IMG/VR virus record: IMGVR_UViG_3300037424_000754
Span: 1-61,644 of that record
DNA length: 61,644 nucleotides
Reading direction: 5' to 3' (one strand)
Source: a virus
Lineage: Duplodnaviria; Caudoviricetes
The notes under the pieces are model-generated. The model saw only the letters and a list, made by a program, of their open reading frames with translations. It was not told the origin of the DNA and did no database searches. Positions within the stretch are counted from its first letter, which is position 1; each line of letters opens with the position of its first letter. A program made the position numbers and the translations under genes. This document shows, piece by piece, positions 1 through 50,709 of this stretch.

Positions 1-127
1 GCTCTCCTGGAGGAGAAAAAGCTCGGCACCATAGGAGGAACCGAAGCAAGCATCATCGCCCTGGAGCACGCCGGAGTAAAGCCCAAGTTCGGCCGCACGG
101 CGTTTGGCGTGTGGAGTCAGATGATGG
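1..127. repeat. Terminal direct repeat, copy 1 (circular assembly overlap)
   Basis: 1-127 is identical to 61518-61644; 127 is a common assembler k-mer length. Confidence 0.95.
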
Positions 128-981
128 GCCTAACCCCTCCCGGAGCCGCGGACAATGATCGCATGGAAATGGGACGGCTCATGGAGGAGCCCCTGGCGGT
201 CCGGTTCCAACGCAGGACCGGCCTGTCCACGATCAAGATCCCGATGTTGATACATCCAAATCATGAATGGGTGACAGGCCACTTGGATAGAGGCGTCCTG
301 GGGCCAGACAGAATGACCCCGCAAGGCGACCTGGAGATCAAGACGGTAGGATACTATCAAGATCGAGATTTAGAATGGTCTAACCCTGAGCAGGGCGAAA
401 TGAACAAAGTCCCGCTCGATTACCTGTTGCAGGCAATTTGGTACTTAGGTATCCCCAGGGACGCAGCGCCGGCTTTTGAGCGTGATCTGTACATAGCTGC
501 GCAGTTTGACTTCCAGGCCTTCCGGATCTACCGCTGGGAGGCTTCCCCGCAGTTTCGTACTCTCTGGAAGAGAATGTTTGAGGCGTGCCAGGAGTTCCGC
601 GAAAAGCACGTCCTTACCGGTGATCCCCCTCCGGCGGTCTCCCTTGGAGATCAAAAGCGATGGCTCGACTGGAAGTATCCAGTGGCGGGGAAAGAGATTC
701 TGACGGGCGATGCTCGGACCGTTGAGCTAGCTAAAGCCTACAAGGAAGCGGCCCGGAAGGAGAAGCTAGCGAAAACAGAGAAGGAGGGCCTAGGCGTAGA
801 GCTTGGCAAACTCATAGGCGCGGCTTACGGTATCAAGGCAGAAGCCCAAGGTATCACAGCCTCGATCCATAGACCGTCGCTAACAGAAGCTAAGATCAGC
901 TATGTACGGAAAGCGTTCCGTAGCATCCATGTAAGCGTAAAGGGCGAGGCAGATGATGACGACGGTGTAGCCGGAGGATGA
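1..981 (+). CDS. YqaJ/lambda-exonuclease-family recombination nuclease (3' part; begins at ATG 61473 and reads across the junction, about 341 aa)
   Basis: Frame continuous over the junction; N-terminal IGGTEAS, GRLMEE, HLDR..LEIKT, YLLQAIWYLG motifs; adjacent to RecT. Confidence 0.85.
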   Translation, partial: ALLEEKKLGTIGGTEASIIALEHAGVKPKFGRTAFGVWSQMMGLTPPGAADNDRMEMGRLMEEPLAVRFQRRTGLSTIKIPMLIHPNHEWVTGHLDRGVLGPDRMTPQGDLEIKTVGYYQDRDLEWSNPEQGEMNKVPLDYLLQAIWYLGIPRDAAPAFERDLYIAAQFDFQAFRIYRWEASPQFRTLWKRMFEACQEFREKHVLTGDPPPAVSLGDQKRWLDWKYPVAGKEILTGDARTVELAKAYKEAARKEKLAKTEKEGLGVELGKLIGAAYGIKAEAQGITASIHRPSLTEAKISYVRKAFRSIHVSVKGEADDDDGVAGG

Positions 982-982
982 G

Positions 983-1846
983 ATGGCAGATCCGAGAGCG
1001 ATACAAAAAGCAGGAGAGCAGACGGCGCTAGCGTTCATCCAGTCGCATAGGGCCGACTTCATCAGGGTGATCCCGAAGCACTTGACGCCCGAGCGGCTGC
1101 TAAGGATCGCGGAAAGCTCAATTCGCCGTAGCCCGGACATCGCCATATGCACGCCCGCGTCGATCGTTAGGTCAGTCATGGAGGCATCGATCCTCGGCCT
1201 GGAGCCTGGCGTGCTTGGGGACGGATGGCTGATTGCGTACAATGTGAGCGTAAAGCAGGGCGGAGACTGGCATAAGGTGAAGGAGTGCCAATTCCAGCCA
1301 GGCTACCAGGGTCTTACAAAGCTCGCCATTCAGTCGAAGTCCGTGGCGAGCATCAACGTGGGCGCGGTCTACGCAGACGACGTTCTGGATTATGCGCTTG
1401 GGTCTAGCCCGTACCTGAAACATCGTCCTAGCCTGGCCGTGAGGGCTGTCGATACCAAGGCAATCCTCTACTATTGCGCCATCAAACTGGTCAGCGGCGG
1501 CAAGCAGCTAACAGTCATGTCGCTCGCGGATGTCGAGCGCATTCGTCAGATGAGCATGTCCAAGAACAGTGACAGGTCGCCGTGGAGTAAGCACTTCGAG
1601 CAAATGGGAATCAAGACCGTCGTAAAGCGGGCCCTGAAGATGGTTCCCAAGAGCCCGGAGGTATCGCGCGGGATCGCCATGGATGATCGCCGAGAGATAG
1701 GGGAGTCTTCCAAGGATCTGTTTGTTCCCGACCTTCTTCCGGAACACATACCAGGAGAGGAGGCGCAAGAGGAGAAGGATGCGGTACAGGCGGCGGTAGA
1801 TTTACTAGGAGCGGAAGAGGCGGAGTCACCGGGCGAGAAGCCCTAA
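983..1846 (+). CDS. recT: RecT-family single-strand annealing protein
   Basis: PKHLTPERL, CTPASI, LGLEPG, FQPGYQGL, SPW..HFEQMGIKTVVKR motifs. Confidence 0.92.
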   Translation: MADPRAIQKAGEQTALAFIQSHRADFIRVIPKHLTPERLLRIAESSIRRSPDIAICTPASIVRSVMEASILGLEPGVLGDGWLIAYNVSVKQGGDWHKVKECQFQPGYQGLTKLAIQSKSVASINVGAVYADDVLDYALGSSPYLKHRPSLAVRAVDTKAILYYCAIKLVSGGKQLTVMSLADVERIRQMSMSKNSDRSPWSKHFEQMGIKTVVKRALKMVPKSPEVSRGIAMDDRREIGESSKDLFVPDLLPEHIPGEEAQEEKDAVQAAVDLLGAEEAESPGEKP

Positions 1847-1870
1847 CGCAACGCAATAGCGAGGCAGTCA

Positions 1871-2101
1871 ATGGCAGATCAGATGGTTTTCGAGCACCAG
1901 TTGAAGTTGCAGACGAGCGCGTGGGCGGTTTCCAAGGCAGAGGAACTGCTGCAATACCTGTCGGACGGAGACCGAGAATACTTGATCTCTCGGCTCCATG
2001 GTACGGCGGGCGCTCCACAGGTCGTGCGTGAGACCAAGAAGCGCGGACCCAGGAAGGACAAGGCAGAGACCAAGAAGCCCGAGAAGCCCGAGAAGAAGTA
2101 G
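1871..2101 (+). CDS. Hypothetical protein, basic C-terminus
   Basis: GAGG RBS, operon packing. Confidence 0.6.
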   Translation: MADQMVFEHQLKLQTSAWAVSKAEELLQYLSDGDREYLISRLHGTAGAPQVVRETKKRGPRKDKAETKKPEKPEKK

Positions 2102-2113
2102 GGAGGCCCGCGA

Positions 2114-2611
2114 ATGGCCCGCAAGGACAAGACGAAGGAGAAGATTTACCGCATCCTACGGCGAGAGACTAGGAGACTCCCCGTTAAGCTAACGGAAGCC
2201 GAGGTCATGGCTGCCGCAAAGCGGCTTGGGGCGATCGATGCGGAGCAAGAGGGCGCAGAGGGCGAGGTTGAGGGATACAAGAGCACGATCAAGGGATTGA
2301 ACGTGCGGCTCGAAACGCTCGCCTGTGAGGCCCGCCGCACGGCCCGCGCCATCCGCACGGGGGTGGAGGAGCGGGACGTAGAGGTCACGTGGGAGGCCAA
2401 CACCAAGACCGGAGTCGTTCAGGAGGTGCGGCAGGACACTCACGAGGTCATCCATGAACGCAAGATGACCGGAGACGAGAGCCAGGGCGTTCTGTTCCAG
2501 GAGAACGTGGATAACATCCTTCACGAGGAGCCGGAGCAGAGCGATCTTGATGAGACGTACCCGAAGGAACCGAAAAAGCTACCACCATCAGAGGATGAAA
2601 CAAAACCGTAA
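2114..2611 (+). CDS. Hypothetical coiled-coil protein
   Basis: GGAGG RBS; TAATG overlap with next gene. Confidence 0.7.
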   Translation: MARKDKTKEKIYRILRRETRRLPVKLTEAEVMAAAKRLGAIDAEQEGAEGEVEGYKSTIKGLNVRLETLACEARRTARAIRTGVEERDVEVTWEANTKTGVVQEVRQDTHEVIHERKMTGDESQGVLFQENVDNILHEEPEQSDLDETYPKEPKKLPPSEDETKP

Positions 2612-2862
2612 TGAGAGTGGCTTTCGTAGAGCGCGGGTCGCCTGGGCTGAGCATTTGGGTCTCTGAGTCGGCCAGGGAAATCCACGGCAACAGGTTCGAG
2701 GCCGCCGGATACGTGGCTCACGCTGACGGTCTATGCGCACTCCAGGCATCCGCGCTCTTCGAGTTCTATGGCGTAGGGCATATCGTTGAGTACGAGTGTA
2801 TGGTAGACGTTAAGGATTGGCTGGAGTGCGAAGACCTCCCGGCCACAACCAAGGAACCCTAA
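2611..2862 (+). CDS. Hypothetical protein
   Basis: Coupled by TAATG overlaps on both sides. Confidence 0.6.
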   Translation: MRVAFVERGSPGLSIWVSESAREIHGNRFEAAGYVAHADGLCALQASALFEFYGVGHIVEYECMVDVKDWLECEDLPATTKEP

Positions 2863-3053
2863 TGCTATTCAAGATGAGGGTGAGGCATGGGCATCATGTC
2901 CATGTAGATGTGTTTCGCCTGTACCCGGAGGGCCAGGGCGGAGCGCTGAACGGCACCCTGGTGTTTACGCCTGGCGAGTTCGTCGCTTTTCGAGCCATCC
3001 TGGCAGGCGGATCAGGAGAGCATGAGCACGGCATCGTGATCTCGGAGGAGTAA
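2862..3053 (+). CDS. Hypothetical protein (MLFKMRV...)
   Basis: TAATG overlap at 2860-2864. Confidence 0.55.
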   Translation: MLFKMRVRHGHHVHVDVFRLYPEGQGGALNGTLVFTPGEFVAFRAILAGGSGEHEHGIVISEE

Positions 3054-3061
3054 TCAAAGTC

Positions 3062-3211
3062 ATGAGCGATCTACCTATCAACGTCCGTAAGCTACTGGTC
3101 AAGATCCCCGATCCATTACTCAGGTGGCAGATCGAAAAAGCGATCCTGGCGATGGTCGCAACACGGGCTCGCCAGGAAGCGGGAGCCGACAACAGCCAGA
3201 GGGAACCATGA
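3062..3211 (+). CDS. Small hypothetical protein, 49 aa (not in ORF track)
   Basis: GGAG upstream; ATGA overlap with next gene. Confidence 0.5.
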   Translation: MSDLPINVRKLLVKIPDPLLRWQIEKAILAMVATRARQEAGADNSQREP

Positions 3212-3612
3212 ACGTCTATGTCGCAGGCCGATTTACAAGGAAGGTCGAGGTCAAAAGGGCCCAAGCGCTACTGGTGGCATACGGGCATACGATTTCGGCC
3301 GACTGGACTATGGATAGCGTAGATGGGCTAATGGGAGAGGAGCGGCTTGCGCGGCTTGCGCAGTCGGCAGCGAAAGACCTGGGGGGCGTGAGGCGCGCCG
3401 ACGCGATCCTTGTTCTTCATGATGACACCGGACGCGGCCTATTCGTGGAGCTTGGCATAGCATTGGCTGACCCTAAGAAGCTGGTGTGCGTCGTCGGCGG
3501 CCAGCGCGGATCGCACCCCCAGGGGTGCATCTTCTATTACTTGCCGCATTGCCGACACTTCTGCACGCTAGAGGGCGCAGTCAAGTTTATCACTCAGGCC
3601 GAAAGACCTTGA
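3208..3612 (+). CDS. Nucleoside 2-deoxyribosyltransferase / nucleotide N-hydrolase-like protein
   Basis: VYVAG, DLGGVRRADAILV, GLFVELGIALA motifs; start set at ATG 3208. Confidence 0.7.
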   Translation: MNVYVAGRFTRKVEVKRAQALLVAYGHTISADWTMDSVDGLMGEERLARLAQSAAKDLGGVRRADAILVLHDDTGRGLFVELGIALADPKKLVCVVGGQRGSHPQGCIFYYLPHCRHFCTLEGAVKFITQAERP

Positions 3613-3618
3613 TACCGT

Positions 3619-4338
3619 ATGAGCCATGAGATTAGGTTTGGCGACTGCCTTGACCCTGCGATCGGCCTTGCGTCGCTGGCGGACGGGAGCGTAGATCATG
3701 TGATCTCGGATCCTCCATACGAAGCGGAGGCACACACCCAGCAACGTCGAGTCAAGCACGGCGGCGGCGGGTTGGAAATGGAGCCGCTCCTTTTCGAGCC
3801 CATGTCCCACGAAACACGGATCGAGAGCGCACGGCAAATCGCGCGCGTTGTGCGTAGATGGGCGATCGTCTTCTGCCAGGTCGAGGCAGCGATGGAATGG
3901 GCATGCGCACTCACCAAGGCCGGGCTTGTCTATCGACGCACAGGCATCTGGGTGAAACCAGACGGCATGCCTCAGTACAGCGGGGATAGACCGGGGATGG
4001 GCTACGAGTCAATCGTCATATCCCACGCTCCAGGTAGCTCTACCTGGAACGGGGGCGGGCGGCACGGCGTATGGACGTTTAACAAGATCGGTGAGTTCGA
4101 CCGTAATCGCACAGGCCACCAAACCCAGAAACCACTCGCGCTTATGGAGGCCCTGGTCCGCGACTTCACGGATGAGGGTGAACTCGTTCTGGACCCCTTC
4201 GCCGGCAGCGGCACTACCGGCGTCGCGTGCAAGCGGCTCGGGCGGCGGTTCATCGGATGGGAACGGGATCCGGCGCATCATGCCGTCGCCGAGAAGCGGA
4301 TCGCCGGTACCCGGGAACAGATGCGCATGTTCGAGTGA
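3619..4338 (+). CDS. N4/N6 DNA methyltransferase (beta class)
   Basis: SDPPY, HQTQKP, VLDPFAGSGTT motifs. Confidence 0.92.
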   Translation: MSHEIRFGDCLDPAIGLASLADGSVDHVISDPPYEAEAHTQQRRVKHGGGGLEMEPLLFEPMSHETRIESARQIARVVRRWAIVFCQVEAAMEWACALTKAGLVYRRTGIWVKPDGMPQYSGDRPGMGYESIVISHAPGSSTWNGGGRHGVWTFNKIGEFDRNRTGHQTQKPLALMEALVRDFTDEGELVLDPFAGSGTTGVACKRLGRRFIGWERDPAHHAVAEKRIAGTREQMRMFE

Positions 4339-4378
4339 CCATACATGGCACTACAACACGCAAGCCTCCTGCTCTGAC

Positions 4379-4407
4379 TTGACTTGTCCCGGCGACAAGG
4401 CTATCCT
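4379..4407 (+). promoter_or_regulatory. Sigma70-like promoter
   Basis: TTGACT-17-TATCCT. Confidence 0.55.
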
Positions 4408-4429
4408 GTTTCTGGAAGGAGGGGCTAAA

Positions 4430-4690
4430 ATGACGCGCAAGAGCACGAAGAAGACCGCTGCGGGATCATGCCCGCCGATCGACATCCGGGACCGAACCAT
4501 GGCGCTCTCCGGCGGGGCCCGCATCACCACGACCTCTGGGACGTTTGGCATGATCCTAAGCGTCCGGAGCGGCGGGCGGAATGTCTGGACGGCGGTCATG
4601 TTGTCGCCGCGCGAGACCTTGGCGCTCGCCCGGATGCTGATTGAGTCGGCGGACGACATGCTGCCCGGTAAGCGAGCGGACGCCCCTTGA
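4430..4690 (+). CDS. Hypothetical protein (MTRKSTKK...)
   Basis: AGGAGG RBS, upstream promoter. Confidence 0.6.
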   Translation: MTRKSTKKTAAGSCPPIDIRDRTMALSGGARITTTSGTFGMILSVRSGGRNVWTAVMLSPRETLALARMLIESADDMLPGKRADAP

Positions 4691-4715
4691 CACTGTAGCA
4701 AGGCTATGCCATATT
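4687..4715 (+). promoter_or_regulatory. Sigma70-like early promoter
   Basis: TTGACA-17-CATATT. Confidence 0.6.
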
Positions 4716-4818
4716 ACAGGCGAAAGGGAAGATAGCTAGCCGGCTCCGATAGCAGATACCCGCAACGGTGGCAGTAAGCACGGACCATCAAGGCTAGGCA
4801 AACCAAAAAGGATTTCAC

Positions 4819-5016
4819 ATGAATACCGTAGAATGTCAGTGTGAGCATGAGGCGCACTTTGACCCCGTCAAGCGGACCCCAGATGGTAACCCGGGACACA
4901 GGTACGGCGCTCGGTTCACGGGCTACTTCATGGTGCAGGTCAGGTCGGAACGTCTTTGTCCGGACTGCGCGGCAGATTGTCGCGCCGGGACGAGGGATGG
5001 GTCAGTAGCGAAGTAA
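4819..5016 (+). CDS. Small Cys/His zinc-finger-like protein
   Basis: CQCEHEAH...CPDC; AAGGA RBS. Confidence 0.55.
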   Translation: MNTVECQCEHEAHFDPVKRTPDGNPGHRYGARFTGYFMVQVRSERLCPDCAADCRAGTRDGSVAK

Positions 5017-5047
5017 AGCGAAAACACTCTAACAAAGGGATATAGTT

Positions 5048-6175
5048 ATGGCAAACCTAACACAGGCAAGCAAGCAGTGGTCATCCCGTCCAGACGATGA
5101 GCGTTTCGTGGGGCTCTACCCGCTCCGGGATCAGATGTTGGCGTGGCGCGACACCTCGCGCTCCATGGTCGTGAGCAACAGGGACGTGCAGGCCGTTCCA
5201 GTGGAAGACACGGATCACAAGGGGCTGGTGCTGAATGTCCAGAGGCGCGGCCTGCCTAGCGCAACGGCGTTTTCTCCGTACGAGGCCATCCCGACGCATT
5301 GGGCCTTCGGCCAGCTTTGCCAGCGAGCCGGTGCTCCGTCTGGCTATCTCCGAACCCTGCCCGCCGAGATGGCGGCCGACTGCATCAATTTCGGCCTCCA
5401 GATGCGCGACGTGGACGAGCTTGGCGTGCTCACGCGAGAGAACGGCAGCCTGACCGCTGCCGCGGTTACCGGCCCCAACTACGGCCGGGTGTGGAACCTG
5501 GACGTGGTCAAGGCCCTGATCGGCCGATTCGGGGATGGGCTCACGGGTGACTTCCGAGTCCCGGGCGAGTTCGGCAAGGGCGTCGAGATCACCAAGAAGA
5601 ACACCACGATCTACGCGAGCGACCGTGACATGTTCGTTTTCTTGGCGGACGAGGATCACCGCATCGAGATGCCGAACCGGCGCTTCGGAGAGCCCGGCAG
5701 CTTCGCCCGCGGGTTCTTCGTCTGGAACAGCGAAGTGGGCGCCGCGACCCTGGGCGTCGGGACGTTCCTGTTCGATTACGTGTGCCAGAACAGGATCATC
5801 TGGGGAGCCGAAGGCTATCGCGAGATCAAGCTCCGTCACACCTCGGGCGCTCCGCACCGATTCGTCGAGGAGGTCGCTCCGGCCCTGGAGAAGTACGCGC
5901 AGTCCAGCACTGAGCCGATCACGGCGGCCCTCCAGGCTGCACGCAAGGAGCGGATCGGGGAGCCCGACAAGGTCACGGAGTTCCTGGCGAAGCGCTTCAC
6001 GAAGAGCCAGGCCGTGGCAATCCAGGAGGCTCACGAGACGGACGAGGGCGGGCCGATCGAGACCGTCTGGGACGCCGTCACGGGAGCAACCGCCTACGCT
6101 CGGCACATCTACTGGACCGACGAGCGGGTCAAGGTGGAGAGAGAGGCCGGGAAGATGCTGGATGAAGCACTGTAA
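5048..6175 (+). CDS. DUF932/DUF945-family protein
   Basis: QWSSRPDDERF, THWAFGQLC, YASDRDMFVFL, RGFFVWNSEVG, VCQNRIIWG, RHT motifs. Confidence 0.8.
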   Translation: MANLTQASKQWSSRPDDERFVGLYPLRDQMLAWRDTSRSMVVSNRDVQAVPVEDTDHKGLVLNVQRRGLPSATAFSPYEAIPTHWAFGQLCQRAGAPSGYLRTLPAEMAADCINFGLQMRDVDELGVLTRENGSLTAAAVTGPNYGRVWNLDVVKALIGRFGDGLTGDFRVPGEFGKGVEITKKNTTIYASDRDMFVFLADEDHRIEMPNRRFGEPGSFARGFFVWNSEVGAATLGVGTFLFDYVCQNRIIWGAEGYREIKLRHTSGAPHRFVEEVAPALEKYAQSSTEPITAALQAARKERIGEPDKVTEFLAKRFTKSQAVAIQEAHETDEGGPIETVWDAVTGATAYARHIYWTDERVKVEREAGKMLDEAL

Positions 6176-6238
6176 GGCGAAACGGGGCAATTTGCCCCGT
6201 CGCGCGGGGACGGGCTGCCGCGCCTGACGAGCCAGCCC
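6176..6238 (+). ncRNA. Type II hammerhead ribozyme
   Basis: GGC-GAAAC-GGGGCAA/T/TTGCCCC-GTC-GCGCGG/loop/CCGCGC-CTGACGA-GCC; loop GGGCT pairs with 3' AGCCC; predicted cleavage after C6201. Confidence 0.88.
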
Positions 6239-6255
6239 AGGGAAAGGGTAGTACC

Positions 6256-6441
6256 ATGAACTGCATGTCGCGCATCATCTGCCTGCGGGAGTTTTTCGGG
6301 ATGAAGGACGGACAGAAGCTGGTGGAGTTCAGCGCGGAGATCAAGGCGCTGTCGGAGCCGGAGAAGGAGTACCTGGCGACCACCGCGAAGGCGGAGATGA
6401 TCCGGCGCGGCTCGCACAAGCCGGAAGACTTCGGGTTCTAG
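6256..6441 (+). CDS. Small hypothetical protein, 61 aa
   Basis: Purine-rich RBS, strong GC3 codon bias. Confidence 0.7.
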   Translation: MNCMSRIICLREFFGMKDGQKLVEFSAEIKALSEPEKEYLATTAKAEMIRRGSHKPEDFGF

Positions 6442-6454
6442 GGACGAGGGGCGA

Positions 6455-6751
6455 AGACGGGCTAGGCCAAATCAAACGACCCGGGGCCGTGAGAGTCGGC
6501 CTAATCCTAAACGCAGCGTCAGCCTGGGAGAATCCAATCATCGGCGGGGCATACTAAAGCCGCCTGTTGCCTAAATCATCGGCAGGATACCCAGAGCATG
6601 AAAACCTAATCGTCGCGAATGGCTATCATAAGCCAGGGCGGCCAAAAAATCGTTATGCCGCTCCACAAGCCGGCGGGGCTCCGGTAAAATGGCCCCTGAG
6701 CGTAGGCAGTATTGCAGTGCCCGGGAGTGTCCTACGCCACTCCCGGCTTTT
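6455..6751 (+). ncRNA. Candidate structured ncRNA with repeated AAUC motifs
   Basis: Several nested stems, eight (A/T)ATC motifs mostly in unpaired regions, no credible ORF. Confidence 0.5.
6721..6751 (+). terminator. Rho-independent terminator
   Basis: CCGGGAGTG-8nt-CACTCCCGG then CTTTT. Confidence 0.7.
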
Positions 6752-6772
6752 AGCGGATACTAAAGGAGCAAA

Positions 6773-7411
6773 ATGGAAAGGGTAATAAAGTCCATGCCAG
6801 CGGCCAAGGCGATCGGCCTAGGGATCGGCAAGATCCTGAAGCGCTTCCCGCCCGAGGTCTCGATCGACGACGAGTCGCACGACTGGATGGTTCTTCAGGA
6901 TGAAGTAACAAAGATCCGGAAGAGGTCTGGCATGACGAGAAGCTTAAGGAAGACCACAAGGATTGGCCTAGACCAATTCCTGGTGCCGCGAGTCACGGTG
7001 ACCAGCCAGGTCCCGTCTCTATCGGAGCAGAGGTTGGCGAGCATGGAAAGCGAGCTAACCCAACTGCGCAAGAGGCTGACCTATCAGGCCCTCTCCGAGC
7101 GCTACGAACCTGATCCCGTCCGGCTTGGTTTTGGACCAGGCCGCCCGCTTCCGGCCGATCCCTGTGCTGTCTACGACTATCTGATCGGAATGATGCTCCT
7201 ATGCCGCATGCATCACAAGGATCCCGGAGGCAGAAAGGACAGGATCGCGCTAATCGAGCGCAGGGAAGGCGAGTACCTGGTGGGCCAGCAAGTCGGGAGC
7301 CGTGTTTCGGAATTCAGGGTGAAGGGCAGTACACTCACGCGGTACATGGGGCATAATTACATCATCATTCGCCGTCCGGGAGAATCTCGAATCTGGATCA
7401 GGGGGGAATAG
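6773..7411 (+). CDS. Hypothetical protein
   Basis: AAGGAG RBS, 212 aa. Confidence 0.7.
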   Translation: MERVIKSMPAAKAIGLGIGKILKRFPPEVSIDDESHDWMVLQDEVTKIRKRSGMTRSLRKTTRIGLDQFLVPRVTVTSQVPSLSEQRLASMESELTQLRKRLTYQALSERYEPDPVRLGFGPGRPLPADPCAVYDYLIGMMLLCRMHHKDPGGRKDRIALIERREGEYLVGQQVGSRVSEFRVKGSTLTRYMGHNYIIIRRPGESRIWIRGE

Positions 7412-7413
7412 TC

Positions 7414-7659
7414 ATGACCAGCAAAGAGCAAATGCATGCATGGAAGATGTTGGCCTTGGAGCCGCTAGAGCACTCGGCCAAGTCCCATCACCAGAAGTAC
7501 GAAATCGGCCAATCAGAGCGATACACCGGAGAGCTAAGGATAGCCCTCCATGACGCGATCATGGCGATCGAGTATCAAGAACACCTGCTGGACCTACTGG
7601 ATGAAGTCATGAGCCAGTCCAGGGACGCGCATCGTCCGAACCCAGACGTTCGACACTAG
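7414..7659 (+). CDS. Hypothetical protein (last + strand gene)
   Basis: Packed after previous gene; converges on 7662. Confidence 0.6.
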   Translation: MTSKEQMHAWKMLALEPLEHSAKSHHQKYEIGQSERYTGELRIALHDAIMAIEYQEHLLDLLDEVMSQSRDAHRPNPDVRH

Positions 7660-7661
7660 GA

Positions 7662-8051
7662 CTAGCGTCCGGACCAGTGGCCCACGATCCGTAGCGTGGC
7701 TATTACGCCCGCGCCAAAGGCAGGCACAACGATTCGGATACGGGGAGGAATCGGGGCCGGCAGGCCGCCCAGATACGTGGTGGCACCCGTTTGAGCGAGC
7801 GCCGCACCCCCAACCCCCACGCCCCATCCAATGACGATGGGGGTTGAGCTAGTACCGGACGCGAAAGCAACTAGCTGGCCGGTGCCAAGGTCCGGATCAA
7901 AAAGCTGGACGTTAGCGGAGGTCATGGCAGCGCTCGGGCTGACCTGGATTATGATCGCATCTATCGGCCCCGCCATCGGGAAGTTGAGCGCTCCAGTGTC
8001 GATCGCCGTGTTGGCTGCTCCGGTGATCTCGTAGACTTCTGCGGACGGCAT
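7662..8051 (-). CDS. Small beta-rich putative virion protein
   Basis: GGAGG RBS; end of late operon. Confidence 0.55.
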   Translation of the reverse strand: MPSAEVYEITGAANTAIDTGALNFPMAGPIDAIIIQVSPSAAMTSANVQLFDPDLGTGQLVAFASGTSSTPIVIGWGVGVGGAALAQTGATTYLGGLPAPIPPRIRIVVPAFGAGVIATLRIVGHWSGR

Positions 8052-8060
8052 ATGACCTCC

Positions 8061-9281
8061 CTATCTCTCGCTGGGTTGATCCTGGCGAGACTGCATCTCG
8101 GTTCGCGTGCGCTTCGCGAGTGACGGGTGATCCTTCGGCATGGGCTGGCCCTGGGATGCGCCGACCATGGCCTGGCGACCCTTGACCGCCAGGTAAGATA
8201 TCTGGCTCGCCACGATGAAGTTTCCCGACATCATGCCGTCCATGTCCTGGCCCAGTAGAGTCGAGAGCATCATCCGCTGGCGGTAAGGAACCTCGCGGCC
8301 CTTATTCTCTGTAAGGCTATTCACAACGGCAGCCTGCATGCGTTCGTAAAGCGCCGGGTACACAGACTGCACGGCCTGTACGGACTCCGACGTGAGCGTG
8401 CCAGCCGTCGCCTCACGCATGATGACGAATGGATCGTCTACCGCGTCCCACGCGCGCCGGAAACCCGCCAGGGCGGAGGCGGACGGCGGGATCTCCGGCA
8501 TGAGCGGGCCTGCCGAGACTGCTTGCGGCAGGACGCTTCTCAGGTGGCCTAGCGCTCGTACGGTAGTCGCGTTGGCTGAGATGGCTGTTCCGGGGGCGTG
8601 CTCTTGCCACCCCTCCGTCTGGGCGACGAGGAGATCCGCTAGTGTCTCCTCGTCGCTGGAGAGCCGCAGGACGGCCTCCATTCGCCTCGCGTAGCCCTTC
8701 CCCGGTTCGGCCCCGCTGACGGTGGGGGCCGGGGCTTCGTGGCCCTGAATCGAACCCCTGACCGCGTTCCTGGCCTGCGTGGCAAGCCTCCCGGCCACCC
8801 CAGCCAAGCGCTCCTGGATGAGTCCCAGGGCTACGGCCTGCTCGGGGATGACCCTGGGCTCGGGGGACGGGGCCTCCGCCTGCATCGCCCCGTTGGCGAG
8901 GGCGAACAGCCCCTGCGCCATCTCGCGCTCCCTGATCGCTCGTTTCGCCTCGGCCGAATCCGCGGATCCTGCCGCGGACAGCACGGCAAGCCCCTCGTCT
9001 CGAAACCGAATCGCTTCCTGTGAGCGCTGCGCCACCATCCGGGGCGACGCGCTAGGCGTGAGAATGCCTAGCTCACCGCCCGCCCGAGCCAGTCGCTTCA
9101 GCCCTTCAGGCTCAGAATCCCCGGCCCAGACCCCTAGCTTCTGGGTGAGGATCTCGGGTGTCGAGGCTTCCGCATCGAGGTTCCAGCCGTCGAGTACCTT
9201 CGCCGTACTCACATCGGCGACGAGAGCCTCGCCAGCGTATCGAGGATCGAGCCCGAGAGCTTGCTCTATACCTGGGTTCAT
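8061..9281 (-). CDS. Putative ejection/internal virion protein
   Basis: Ala-rich helical; position after nozzle/GNAT typical of podoviruses. Confidence 0.5.
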   Translation of the reverse strand: MNPGIEQALGLDPRYAGEALVADVSTAKVLDGWNLDAEASTPEILTQKLGVWAGDSEPEGLKRLARAGGELGILTPSASPRMVAQRSQEAIRFRDEGLAVLSAAGSADSAEAKRAIREREMAQGLFALANGAMQAEAPSPEPRVIPEQAVALGLIQERLAGVAGRLATQARNAVRGSIQGHEAPAPTVSGAEPGKGYARRMEAVLRLSSDEETLADLLVAQTEGWQEHAPGTAISANATTVRALGHLRSVLPQAVSAGPLMPEIPPSASALAGFRRAWDAVDDPFVIMREATAGTLTSESVQAVQSVYPALYERMQAAVVNSLTENKGREVPYRQRMMLSTLLGQDMDGMMSGNFIVASQISYLAVKGRQAMVGASQGQPMPKDHPSLAKRTRTEMQSRQDQPSER

Positions 9282-13610: not shown

Positions 13611-16600
13611 TTAGCCCTTTGTCTTCGATGCCGGGATCCTGGCGAGGCCACGGTGGACCCCGAGCCGCAGGCTGATTCCGGACAGGGTCAACCCTTCTCC
13701 TATAGTAAGCCCGTTCTGTATCTCGGTTATCGTTATCTGGATAGCCTGGCACTGCTGCTTTTTGCACTGAACCCGCCACTGAAGAACACCGTCGGTTCCG
13801 AGCCCGTTAAACACGCTCGTCTGCATCACCGTATCGTCATAGTCATAGGCCAGGTCGACCCGAAGCGTATGATCGGATTTTTGCGTCCCAAAAATCAGTA
13901 CCTCCCAGACTCTCTGGAACCCCTGCATCCCCGCCAACTGAAGCCATGGCGTCTTTAGCTTAAGCGGGATGTAGGCCCCCGCAGCGCTGTACTGGCCTGG
14001 GGTCTCGACCCAGATGCTGTCATCGCCCAAAAGCAGGGTCGGGCGCTTGTTCCACATGACCGAGCTTATGGCATCTATCCCCGTGAACACGGACCACTGG
14101 TTCATCAGGTAGTCATAGAGCAGCGTGATTCCGTTCTCCAAAACAAACATCACCCAGTTTGCGTCAGACGGTGACAGTGAACTGGTGACCGCAATGGAGT
14201 TATACGCCTCTACGTCCGCCCCGATGTAACTCGTCCCGAGGTCCCTGGTTAGAATGAAGAATCCCTTTTCCGACTTGTAAACCAGGCCGGGCGCTATGGA
14301 GGCCAGGGACTTCTTGTCCGCACATCCAGTGTCAGTCAGGATCGGAATTTCCTGGTAGCCAATGTCCCCGCCAGTGCGAGGAGGCCCGTCTCCCCGAACG
14401 TAGCTGATAGCCCTGCTCCGGAACACGATCGTCTTATCGTCCATGTTTGCTATCGCTATCGCTGGACCGGTGCTGGCCTGGAGTTTCAGCGTCAGGCGCC
14501 CGCTAAACTCAACCGGGGTGCCAGGGATGGTCTCCTGGCTGAACCAAAGCACGTACGGGTCTTCAGCGTCTATCAGCCACGTCCTGTTGCTAACCTGAGC
14601 CATCGCCAGGGGTGGGGCAGACGGATCGTTTCTTAGTACCCCGCCTGTAGTGTATAGCTGGCTGTATCCTAACAGTGCCGAGTCAGGAGTCCTGTCCACA
14701 AAGGATACGTAATCAACCGACAAGCTATTGATCGGCGGCCTGATCCCTGGCGTCACGGCACGGTGGAATGTAGTGCCTCCATCACTCGTCCTGTACGGGA
14801 CGATGAAAACCTCACGGGGAGCCTTGCTGGTAATCCTAAGTGTCGGCAACTGAATGGTGACGGCATTTGCTGCCGCATCGATCGGGTTGGCCTGAGCGTG
14901 AGTAACGGGTACCGCGGGCGCAGAAATGTGCAGCCGCCCAACCGCATCCATCCACTCATAGCAAGCGGTGTACTGGTAGACTCTCTGCCCGCCAGGATTG
15001 GGGGCTCTCAGGATCTCTGGGCCAAGATGAAATCCGTGTTCCACTATCTGAGCGCCGTCCCACATCCAGAGCACTCCGCCGCCCATGTGCAGTACGTTCG
15101 CCGCCTCGGCAGATACCGGCTGTCTATTGAAGCTTATAGACACTTCGTTCACGGTACCGGATGATCCGAGCCGCCTCTCCTGTAGCGGCACGATGGCAAC
15201 GTTATTGTCTAGGACCCTAACCTCCGGCAGCGTGGTGGTGGCATATGGGTTATTCGCTCCGTTGGGATGACCGGCGGCAGTGAACATCATCACCTTGCCG
15301 CACACGCTACCCATACTCTCCACTATGAAGTAGGTGCCTTGTATCTCGCTGTCATGCACCATCATCAGGTACAGGTCGCCGTCCACAAAGAACGGCTTGG
15401 CTGCCAACCCGAGAGACCTCACGAAATCAAACGGAATGCCAGCAAACGAGTAATCTGACTGGCACCGCATGGTCCGCGTCCAGAAGTCCTGGGCCGGTGC
15501 CTTCGCAGACGGGTGCAGCGTGTAGAACAGCCTATAGGGCTCCAGCGACCCATCATCCAGGCATATGCCTGCCAGTGACGCAACGTTAGTAGCGGCCTCA
15601 ACCGTGGCTCCGCCGTACGCATGGCCCGTATAGTCATCGGTGGTTGCAAACAAGACAATGCTGGCACCGTTCGCCAGCAACAGCATGACCCGCGGAGGGT
15701 GTATCAGGTCCGCGAACACTGATATGCCCTGACTGCATGCCATCGGAAACGTATATCTGTGCAGGACGACGAGTGAATCAGACAGAGTGTAAACACTCGT
15801 GTTGCCGCCGTCCGAGTTTACGGCGATGACCGCGTTTGGCCCGATGACCGTTACATCGTAAACGCCTTTAGTGGCGCTCGTGACGGTGGCTATATTGATG
15901 GGGATCGAGGTCACGCCGCCGTACGGGCTGGTAACGTCCATGTAGGAGCAATACAGGCTAGAGCCACGCAGGAAGAACACAACGATGTATTGCCCTAGAA
16001 CTATGCACTTTGGGGCATGATCGTTGACGGCCGGGATGTTGGACACGGACTGTGACGAGGCGATCTGGATTCCGGTCTCCTGGTCGATCACGGAATGAAA
16101 GCACCCCGTGTTGCTATCCGCGTCTTCCCACGCGACTACAGTTATCCCGCTGGGATGCACCGCCATGTCGGCATGGGACATCCTCCCGGAGACCACGCCG
16201 ATGCTTCTCTTTTGGGCCAGGATCGCTCTATTGGCCGGGGGAGCGTTGAACCCTACTCCACTGCCGACGAGCGGCACGGGACCGAGCGTATCAAGCGCCG
16301 TAGACGGATCAGCAAGGGGCCGGTCCTTGTTCTGCCGGGCCACGCCGTCGTTGACCGCCGTCCAAACGTCGCGGGCCGGCGTCCACGCATAGCTTCTCAT
16401 CCCATCGTGCAGGAGAAGCCTGTCTCCTAGCGTGTATAGCGCTAGCCCAGCGCCGAGAGCGCCGCCCCCCGCGACTTCCTTAGACAGCGGGGCGTGGCCG
16501 TTCCTCTTTTGGATGCGATTGGGCGCAACGAAGATGCTGTTTTCGAGCACAACCAGCTTGCCAGGAGCGATGTGGAACTCGTCGCTCTTGGTATCAACCC

Positions 16601-50448: not shown

Positions 50449-50709
50449 TTACGGCTGCACGTCAAACAGATCCTTTGGCCATCCGCCGCAGTAATATGCC
50501 GGCCGGTCCCCGATCCCGCAGCGTTGACACTCGCGCGGGAATCGCAGGTATTTCACCGTAAGCGGCCCCGCAGAGGTGTAGTACGTTTCGCCATCGTACT
50601 CCTCGCAGTCGTACCACTCCTCCGGGGTTAGGCCATGAGCCTGGAGACCCGCCGCGAACGCTTCAGACCCTACGTCGAGCTTCGCCCGTCCCTTCATAGC
50701 GGTCTCCAT
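50449..50709 (-). CDS. Hypothetical protein with CxxC
   Basis: Operon packing; start uncertain. Confidence 0.45.
   Translation of the reverse strand: METAMKGRAKLDVGSEAFAAGLQAHGLTPEEWYDCEEYDGETYYTSAGPLTVKYLRFPRECQRCGIGDRPAYYCGGWPKDLFDVQP

Follow-up and report, generated by a model that had tools for sequence, protein, structure and literature searches.

Which function might a predicted self-cleaving ribozyme have when it lies between the stop codon of one phage gene and the start codon of the next, with hardly a nucleotide to spare? The question is raised by the virus record IMGVR_UViG_3300037424_000754 (Duplodnaviria; Caudoviricetes), whose 61,644 bp constitute a complete virus genome with direct terminal repeats; we refer to this whole stretch of DNA as the window. 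An earlier note had placed a type II hammerhead ribozyme right after the stop codon of a gene of the DUF932 family, and had proposed that its cleavage separates the DUF932 message from an RNA carrying a 61-aa gene (orf61) and a downstream non-coding RNA. We identified the element as a type II hammerhead of full consensus and consider it probable (about 0.75), judging from sequence and context, that it acts as an intercistronic mRNA-processing site uncoupling DUF932 from the downstream cistrons.

The Rfam scan covered the whole window on both strands with 4227 families, and its E-values take all of these into account. The only match at gathering threshold was Hammerhead_II (RF02276) at positions 6175-6241 of the + strand, spanning model positions 1-66 of 66 with 45.0 bits (gathering score 37; E 5.3e-6); the outcome was the same when the window was searched as a genome. 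A search with this model had been proposed in the earlier note, whose identification is borne out by the score. Elsewhere, in 1,267,094 bases from 32 related phage records, the best Hammerhead_II score was 14.8 bits, and a strict hammerhead descriptor of our own (see below) gave 0 matches in three shuffles of 1.33 Mb. These figures leave a practically negligible probability to a chance resemblance without any ribozyme. At the level of sequence, positions 6175-6241 encode a full-consensus (active-type) type II hammerhead, i.e., a known kind of element with all the defining sequence features present. BLAST of the 74-nt ribozyme region against 50,697 annotated phage records returned no match.

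The predicted RNA (all positions on the + strand) follows the permutation GGC - GAAA - stem III hairpin - UC - stem I hairpin - CUGACGA - GCC, with stem II open. The three pairs of stem II join GGC (6176-6178) to GCC (6231-6233). Next to the 5' strand come the core nucleotides G12 A13 A14 (6179-6181), in the core definition of PMC3088659 (Perreault et al. 2011), and then the stem III hairpin (6182-6200), which has seven pairs and the loop AAUUU: the closing pair A15.1-U16.1 (A6182-U6200), C6183-G6199, and GGGGC/GCCCC (6184-6188/6194-6198). The scissile bond, predicted by hammerhead numbering on the Rfam alignment, lies between C17 (C6201) and G1.1 (G6202). Stem I (6202-6223) is a hairpin of six G-C or C-G pairs, GCGCGG/CCGCGC (6202-6207/6218-6223), with a 10-nt loop (6208-6217); it is followed by CUGACGA (6224-6230), corresponding to C3 U4 G5 A6 N7 G8 A9 with C at N7. 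Within the stem I loop, GGGCU (6212-6216) can form five Watson-Crick pairs with the 3' tail AGCCC (6234-6238), a pseudoknot duplex of -7.5 kcal/mol.

The rules given in PMC3088659 fix C3 U4 G5 A6 G8 A9 G12 A13 A14 A15 U16 H17 and allow no mispair adjacent to the core. All 13 conserved core positions are present (CUGACGA at 6224-6230, GAA at 6179-6181, A6182, U6200 and C6201), the core-adjacent pairs are canonical (G6231-C6178, G6202-C6223 and A6182-U6200), and the stems of 3, 6 and 7 pairs contain no mismatch. Most of the structure drawn in the earlier note agreed with this: the type II topology with a pseudoknot between loop I and the 3' tail stood, given the RF02276 score above cut-off and the agreement with every sequence rule of PMC3088659; the core segments GAAAC (6179-6183), GUC (6199-6201) and CUGACGA (6224-6230) lay where it had put them; and so did the pairings GCGCGG/CCGCGC of stem I, GGC/GCC of stem II and GGGCT with AGCCC. 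Two details required correction. Stem III had been drawn as GGGGCAA/TTGCCCC; its GC part was right, and the two innermost A-T pairs were not, because forming both would leave a loop of 1 nt, so that seven pairs are retained, with A6189-U6193 as a possible eighth. The placement directly after the DUF932 stop was correct, with the refinement that the Rfam match itself begins on A6175, the final A of the TAA.

We then searched the IMG/VR contigs with a pattern composed of the core, the stem II of the window and an AGCC tail. It matched 86 stretches, and the family figures rest on 80 of these 86 loci. The fetched loci contained 124 type II instances (125 with that of the window), 98 of them distinct, and many carried 2-5 tandem hammerhead copies; at L115, L052, L086, L090 and others, 4-5 type II hammerheads occur within a few kb, each between small open reading frames (ORFs). 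In the alignment of 99 rows (the copy in the window plus the 98 distinct viral type II hammerheads), 97.6% of the cells of 14 stem pairs were paired, as compared with 74.9% in shuffled rows and 27-47% in slid controls. Double-sided changes numbered 238 versus 56 in shuffled rows and were seen in 9 of the 14 pairs. The five invariant pairs, three in stem II and two in stem III, are so by construction: the stem II pairs and C15.2-G16.2 are fixed by the search pattern, and A15.1-U16.1 by the core. Note that the pattern biases the sample and that some of the phages in it are related; the rows are therefore not independent. The best helix between loop I and tail averaged 4.22 bp in the 99 relatives versus 3.25 +/- 0.07 for shuffled loops. 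Position N7 was C, as in the window, in 17 of the 99 and U in the other 82, and a C followed AGCC in 13 of 99. This covariation applies at the level of the family and not of this locus, because no ortholog of this exact ribozyme was found in the 32 related records at the Rfam cut-off.

The family also has a characteristic placement. Among 112 distinct contexts, the window included, an ORF of at least 50 codons ended 0-3 nt before the ribozyme in 41, as compared with 525 of 20,000 random positions, and a start codon with a Shine-Dalgarno-like motif was located 10-29 nt past the tail in 92. In the window the ribozyme follows the DUF932 stop by 0 nt and the ATG of orf61 (6256) lies 18 nt after AGCC; its tight position between a stop and the next start is thus a habit of the family. 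The flanking genes themselves vary. They are mostly small and unannotated and include HU, DUF3164, GemA and ArdA, and no Pfam family appeared in more than 3 of 90 upstream proteins (the upstream protein of the window included) or in more than 1 of 71 downstream proteins. Among the matches listed, the closest ribozyme was that at L068 (1673-1732), 90% identical over 41 nt: it has the same stem I (GCGCGG/CCGCGC), the same pseudoknot (GGGCU/AGCCC) and C at N7, a wholly different stem III, and flanking genes unrelated to those of the window. This likeness hints, as far as sequence comparison goes, that ribozyme modules may move between phages.

What stands at the same site in relatives that encode a DUF932 protein? 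Homologs 44-62% identical were collected in two rounds, giving 36 loci and then 68 further loci, the second set drawn from the best 80 of at least 581 in IMG/VR. A GC-rich, perfectly paired hairpin of 6 bp or more, starting within 30 nt of the DUF932 stop, was present in 23 of 30 distinct contexts in the first round (500 of 3000 random windows) and in 34 of 50 in the second (499 of 3000), i.e., in 57 of 80 altogether. A T-rich tail followed only 3 of the hairpins in the first round and 13 in the second. The stem III hairpin of the window sits where these relatives have their plain hairpin. On the upstream side, hairpins of 6 bp or more lay within 110 nt of DUF932 in 21 of 29 contexts (891 of 2000 random windows), and hairpins of 8 bp or more in 17 of 29 (266 of 2000).

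Rfam cut-offs miss divergent hammerheads; therefore, we built our own descriptor, consisting of the core and three helices in all three permutations. The first scan covered, in full length, the records of the window and of the 32 relatives from the first round (1,328,738 bases). The strict descriptor found two matches, that of the window and one at locus L014, 2914-2966 on the + strand (13650-13702 of its full record, G013), and 0 in three shuffles. The L014 element is a type I hammerhead with a predicted cut 38 nt before the DUF932 ATG. It has a perfect core (CUGAUGA, GAAA, GUC) and helices of 4, 3 and 6 bp, and scores far under the Rfam cut-offs (17.6 bits with Hammerhead_1; 23.1 bits with RAGATH-1-hammerhead); a 118-codon ORF upstream appears to stop inside its stem II loop. 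A relaxed descriptor added a type II copy at locus L021, 2907-2972 on the + strand (50507-50572 on the minus strand of the full record, G020). In this copy GGUC pairs with GACC to form a 4-bp stem II, and UGAU with GUCA to form a covarying pseudoknot of 4 bp. The copy shares one base with the upstream ORF, the final G of whose TAG is the first G of the ribozyme, and it ends 29 nt before the DUF932 ATG. Its stem III has an internal loop, as in L095 and L110, and Rfam gives no match. The relaxed descriptor also returned two weak matches with 3-bp helices elsewhere, which is the shuffle rate (2 per 3 runs). In each of the three full genomes (about 80, 45 and 88 ORFs), the sole credible hammerhead abuts DUF932.

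Further copies were found at other DUF932 loci. In the second, independent set of 68 loci, L224 and L228, which come from the same sample and have identical ribozyme sequences, were counted as one lineage; L224 carries three type II copies in a row on the + strand (2377-2444, 2916-2975 and 4103-4161). The first lies one gene upstream, and the last two bracket DUF932, the one directly before it having an 8-nt core variant (25.7 bits) and the other beginning 1 nt after the TGA stop (35.8 bits, slightly below cut-off). In both upstream copies the 8-nt core CUGAAAGA replaces CUGANGA, and each of the two copies flanking DUF932 is followed by a near-identical segment with a ribosome-binding site (RBS). 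At L112 a type II copy precedes a DUF932 homolog of 30% identity. Rfam cut-offs alone would have passed over the two DUF932-flanking copies of L224 and those of L014 and L021. In total, across the window and about 100 DUF932 loci, hammerheads stand at a DUF932 border in four lineages, to which L112 adds a distant homolog; border copies make up 5 of the 8 distinct copies found, and a type II copy abuts the DUF932 stop in two lineages (the window and L224/L228). The statistics on these border hammerheads are post hoc and exploratory.

Taken as an mRNA-processing site, the ribozyme would work as follows. Transcription, possibly from a weak promoter-like site at 4687-4715 (see below), would read through DUF932 into the next gene. 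In the nascent RNA the stem III and stem I hairpins would form and the 3-bp stem II would close, and the 5-bp pseudoknot (6212-6216/6234-6238) would dock stem I on stem II, allowing self-cleavage of the RNA at the C6201/G6202 bond. Upstream, this would leave the DUF932 message, ending in a 2',3'-cyclic phosphate one nucleotide past the stem III hairpin. The downstream product would begin with a 5'-OH G within the stem I hairpin and carry orf61, with its RBS directly after the ribozyme; it may end at a hairpin at 6721-6751, for a length of about 550 nt. The type II permutation places the cut between two hairpins, and so both new ends would be capped by a protective hairpin while transcription continues into orf61. 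The ribozyme would in this way be a self-contained version of the plain hairpin of the relatives, one step replacing a hairpin and host nucleases. A role in circular RNA formation or splicing was rejected on the ground that there is a single hammerhead in the genome.

Several observations weigh against this proposal. The minimum free energy (MFE) fold of 6175-6241 (-34.3 kcal/mol; z -1.03) is not the hammerhead, which folds at -28.6 kcal/mol without the pseudoknot, the pseudoknot duplex adding about -7.5; misfolding is therefore possible, although absence of the hammerhead from an MFE fold is expected given its non-canonical core and pseudoknot. No orthologous Hammerhead_II was found in any of the 32 related records at the Rfam cut-off. 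At L244 two copies over the cut-off lie 1.2-1.8 kb upstream of DUF932 and are not adjacent to it, and the link between hammerheads and DUF932 is, with four lineages and L112, sporadic, though not random. Support for the promoter is weak, and the + strand terminator scan gave no convincing site. Finally, any effect on stability rests on general properties of RNA ends: a 3' hairpin impedes 3' exonucleases, and a 5'-OH or a 5' hairpin impedes the 5'-end-dependent RNase E and RNase J.

The same evidence bears on three other explanations. The ribozyme might be a translation-gated switch, in which a terminating ribosome blocks folding and cleavage occurs only when DUF932 is little translated, so that the element would adjust how much message is coupled and how much uncoupled, instead of cutting constitutively. 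A ribosome paused on a stop codon covers a footprint of mRNA around it; since the ribozyme starts at the final A of the DUF932 TAA, a ribosome terminating there would cover the 5' strand of stem II, the GAAA core and half of stem III. The 0-nt gap in the window, the 0-3 nt gaps in 41 of 112 contexts (2.6% at random), the one-base overlap with TAG at L021, the 1-nt spacing of the downstream L224 copy and the competing alternative fold would all suit such a switch. The downstream side is, however, equally tight, with a start codon within 10-29 nt in 92 of 112 contexts, so that genome compaction explains the abutment without gating, and no ligand-binding or switch element is visible; we regard gating as unlikely. 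That only the stem III hairpin is functional, as a 3' stabilizer or weak terminator with a hammerhead core inactive in vivo, is in our judgment very improbable. A plain hairpin does suffice in 57 of 80 relatives, and the MFE fold lengthens stem III at the cost of stems I and II. Yet the stem III hairpin is followed by GUCGCGCGG, with no U-tract, and is thus no intrinsic terminator; moreover, the Rfam E-value and the 0 shuffle matches exclude a chance combination of core, three helices and a 5-bp pseudoknot.

A further explanation is that the ribozyme is a selfish or drifting intergenic cassette, often together with an adjoining RBS, which spreads by recombination and has no role in the expression of DUF932 or orf61. 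Its sporadic occurrence (0 of 32 relatives at the Rfam cut-off) would fit, as would the position of its closest listed counterpart, at L068, between unrelated genes, the three paralogous copies at L224, of which the two flanking DUF932 share near-identical downstream RBS segments, and the variable flanking genes of the family, also reported in PMC3088659. Against it, the core and the pseudoknot are intact and free of degenerate positions, and the covariation in the family shows purifying selection on structure. Furthermore, hammerheads of different topology recur at the borders of one gene family, where relatives have a conserved hairpin at the same site, which argues that the site itself has a role. 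We consider the cassette explanation improbable, and mRNA processing between DUF932 and orf61 the reading that best accommodates the structure, the placement and the comparison with relatives.

From the comparison of the loci a broader proposal may be drawn, which we offer tentatively and hold to be rather doubtful: DUF932 would be a cistron repeatedly "insulated" from its neighbors, mostly by hairpins, several lineages having independently swapped in or added hammerheads. These are of type II downstream of the gene in the window and L224, of type II upstream of it in L021, L224 and L112, and of type I upstream of it in L014. The type II form would be favored for intercistronic positions, as it is cut precisely in the space between one hairpin and the next, so that a single event would give a hairpin-capped 3' end and a hairpin-capped 5'-OH end with no need of a terminator or host RNase; owing to the single base shared with the stop codon, cleavage would depend on clearance of the ribosome. 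If this proved true, a natural comparison at one site could test the role of bacterial and phage hammerheads, a function listed as open in the review PMC6765202.

The ribozyme site lies within the + strand early-gene block of this complete tailed-phage genome. According to the ORF list and Pfam, every credible gene in 1-7659 is on the + strand, and the products recognized by Pfam or PHROG in this part are a YqaJ-like exonuclease, RecT, an N6/N4 DNA methylase and the DUF932-family protein, together with small ORFs. From 7662 on there are long minus-strand genes, 2 of the 6 scanned having weak PHROG matches, one of them to "virion structural protein". The DUF932-family gene (5048-6175, + strand; TAA stop at 6173-6175) encodes 375 aa. 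Its product matched Pfam DUF932 with 22.4 bits, slightly below the cut-off of 23, and PHROG 1362 with E 1e-43, and it is 51% identical to a protein of Synechococcus virus S-ESS1 annotated as DUF932 domain-containing. A profile search against PDB sequences returned only chance-level rows (best E 0.019), and the AlphaFold model (pLDDT, the predicted local distance difference test, 81.4) had no Foldseek match at E<=0.001; its best VIA-align Z, 6.0, is inside the stated noise range. In this model residues 36-145 look weakly like an oligonucleotide/oligosaccharide-binding (OB) fold (RPA, Cdc13; Z about 5, in the noise range), a lead only. Publications mentioning DUF932, as represented by titles and abstracts and in one case by passages, assign it no function.

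A candidate promoter, TTGACA-17-CATATT with a TG-extended -10, was found at 4687-4715 on the + strand. The promoter scan gave 4 sites versus 2.2 +/- 1.3 expected and this one is therefore a weak lead only; it could drive a transcript with orf65, DUF932, the ribozyme and orf61. The consensus terminator scan found no + strand site between 3528 and 9000. The sequencing runs listed for this sequence comprised two of DNA and none of RNA. The GC content at third codon positions (GC3) is 0.84 in DUF932 and 0.95 in orf61, while the genome ORFs average 0.695 (standard deviation 0.076; n=70), which suggests either a strong expression bias or a separate origin of a DUF932-ribozyme-orf61 module.

Downstream of the ribozyme, orf61 (6256-6441, + strand) is preceded by a G-rich, Shine-Dalgarno-like run at about 6240-6248. 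The 61-aa gene noticed earlier looks real: its GC content by codon position is 0.52/0.37/0.95, and 9 distant homologs of 54-98 aa, 47-57% identical, were found among 1.84 billion proteins. They define a family of about 60 aa with the consensus ..S..I.ILK.FFGFK.GQ.L.EF..E.KALS..EK.ELA, and orf61 matched no Pfam or PHROG family. A word-indexed search for relatives returned only orf61 itself, and the IMG/VR viral contigs yielded no relative; none of orf61, orf212 and orf81 had a tblastn match in any DUF932 locus.

The non-coding RNA that had been proposed further on, at 6442-6772, was not supported: the fold z-score of this 331-nt non-coding spacer after orf61 was -0.41, and beyond noise the Rfam scan of 4500-8500 gave no match to it at E<=5. 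The spacer contains 4 of the 15 AATCRTYR motifs of the window, all on the + strand (6536, 6574, 6608 and 6648), 34-40 nt apart and each with a short hairpin beside it; judged by their sequence, they could be protein-binding repeats or part of an origin-like region. An inverted repeat at 6721-6751 (+ strand) can fold into a terminator-like 9-bp GC hairpin, CCGGGAGUG/CACUCCCGG, followed by CUUUU and located directly before the RBS of orf212. The consensus terminator scan did not report this hairpin, and the evidence for it is weak. A promoter-like sequence, TCCACA-17-TAAAAT, lies 30 nt upstream of the hairpin, at 6662-6690, and the two together could form a terminator or attenuator arrangement.

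Type II hammerheads of phages have been known since 2011, and taken alone the copy in the window is one more example. What it adds is its context, a natural comparison of hairpin and ribozyme at the site after the DUF932 stop, and this alternation makes the hypothesis of processing and stabilization directly testable by swapping the elements. Both the recurrence of predicted hammerheads at DUF932 borders and the alternation of hairpin and ribozyme at one orthologous position appear to be unreported in the literature searched. None of the papers searched mentions both DUF932 and a ribozyme; neither "DUF932" nor "stop codon" occurs in the text of PMC3088659, whose supplements may bear on both and may hold DUF932-adjacent examples.

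How does this locus compare with known systems? One counterpart is the stem-loop at the end of a cistron.

Stem-loops between cistrons or at 3' ends protect the upstream cistron from 3' exonucleases, and some are intrinsic terminators. The window resembles them in having a GC-rich hairpin just past a stop codon, and the cleaved DUF932 RNA would end in one. It differs from them in that the RNA would generate its own 3' end, 1 nt past the hairpin, and need neither a U-tract nor a host RNase, and in that transcription would go on into the following gene. The type II hammerheads of RF02276 and PMC3088659 share with the window the core, the permutation, the open 3-bp stem II, the pseudoknot between loop I and the 3' tail and the phage or prophage context. 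The copy in the window differs in its 5-bp pseudoknot GGGCU/AGCCC, C at N7, and a 6-bp stem I with a 10-nt loop. For a type II hammerhead with such a pseudoknot, PMC3088659 gives a rate of about 1 per minute at 0.5 mM Mg2+, and loss of activity once the pseudoknot is broken. The same paper describes genes flanking bacterial and phage hammerheads as not constant, and prophage arrays of hammerheads that cut polycistronic RNA of about 2 kb in vitro, and in one instance also in E. coli; unlike these arrays, the window has a single copy in a complete phage genome.

Tandem hammerheads also flank single prophage genes in Agrobacterium tumefaciens (ardA), Azorhizobium caulinodans and Clostridium scindens (PMC3088659). 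Like the copy in the window they are intercistronic, in a polycistronic phage message, and have been proposed to process it into mRNAs of gene length. The L224/L228 copies on both sides of DUF932 present the same arrangement, whereas the window has one ribozyme, on the 3' side only, and the gene family is DUF932. Three type II hammerheads of Desulfovibrio vulgaris self-cleave in vivo, as detected by cyPhyRNA-seq (PMC8782182). They lie beside hypothetical or phage-like genes and give products with a 2',3'-cyclic phosphate and a 5'-OH, the ends predicted here; they are chromosomal copies of a cultured bacterium with in vivo evidence, whereas the copy in the window is known from sequence. The HHphage variant of the haloviruses HF1 and HF2 lies 13 nt upstream of the start codon of a helicase gene, and a mapped 5' end falls near its cleavage site (PMC3088659). 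It belongs to an archaeal virus, has another core variant and topology and stands at the 5' end of a transcript, unlike the copy in the window; like it, HHphage is found in the early-gene region of a lytic double-stranded DNA virus, directly upstream of a start codon.

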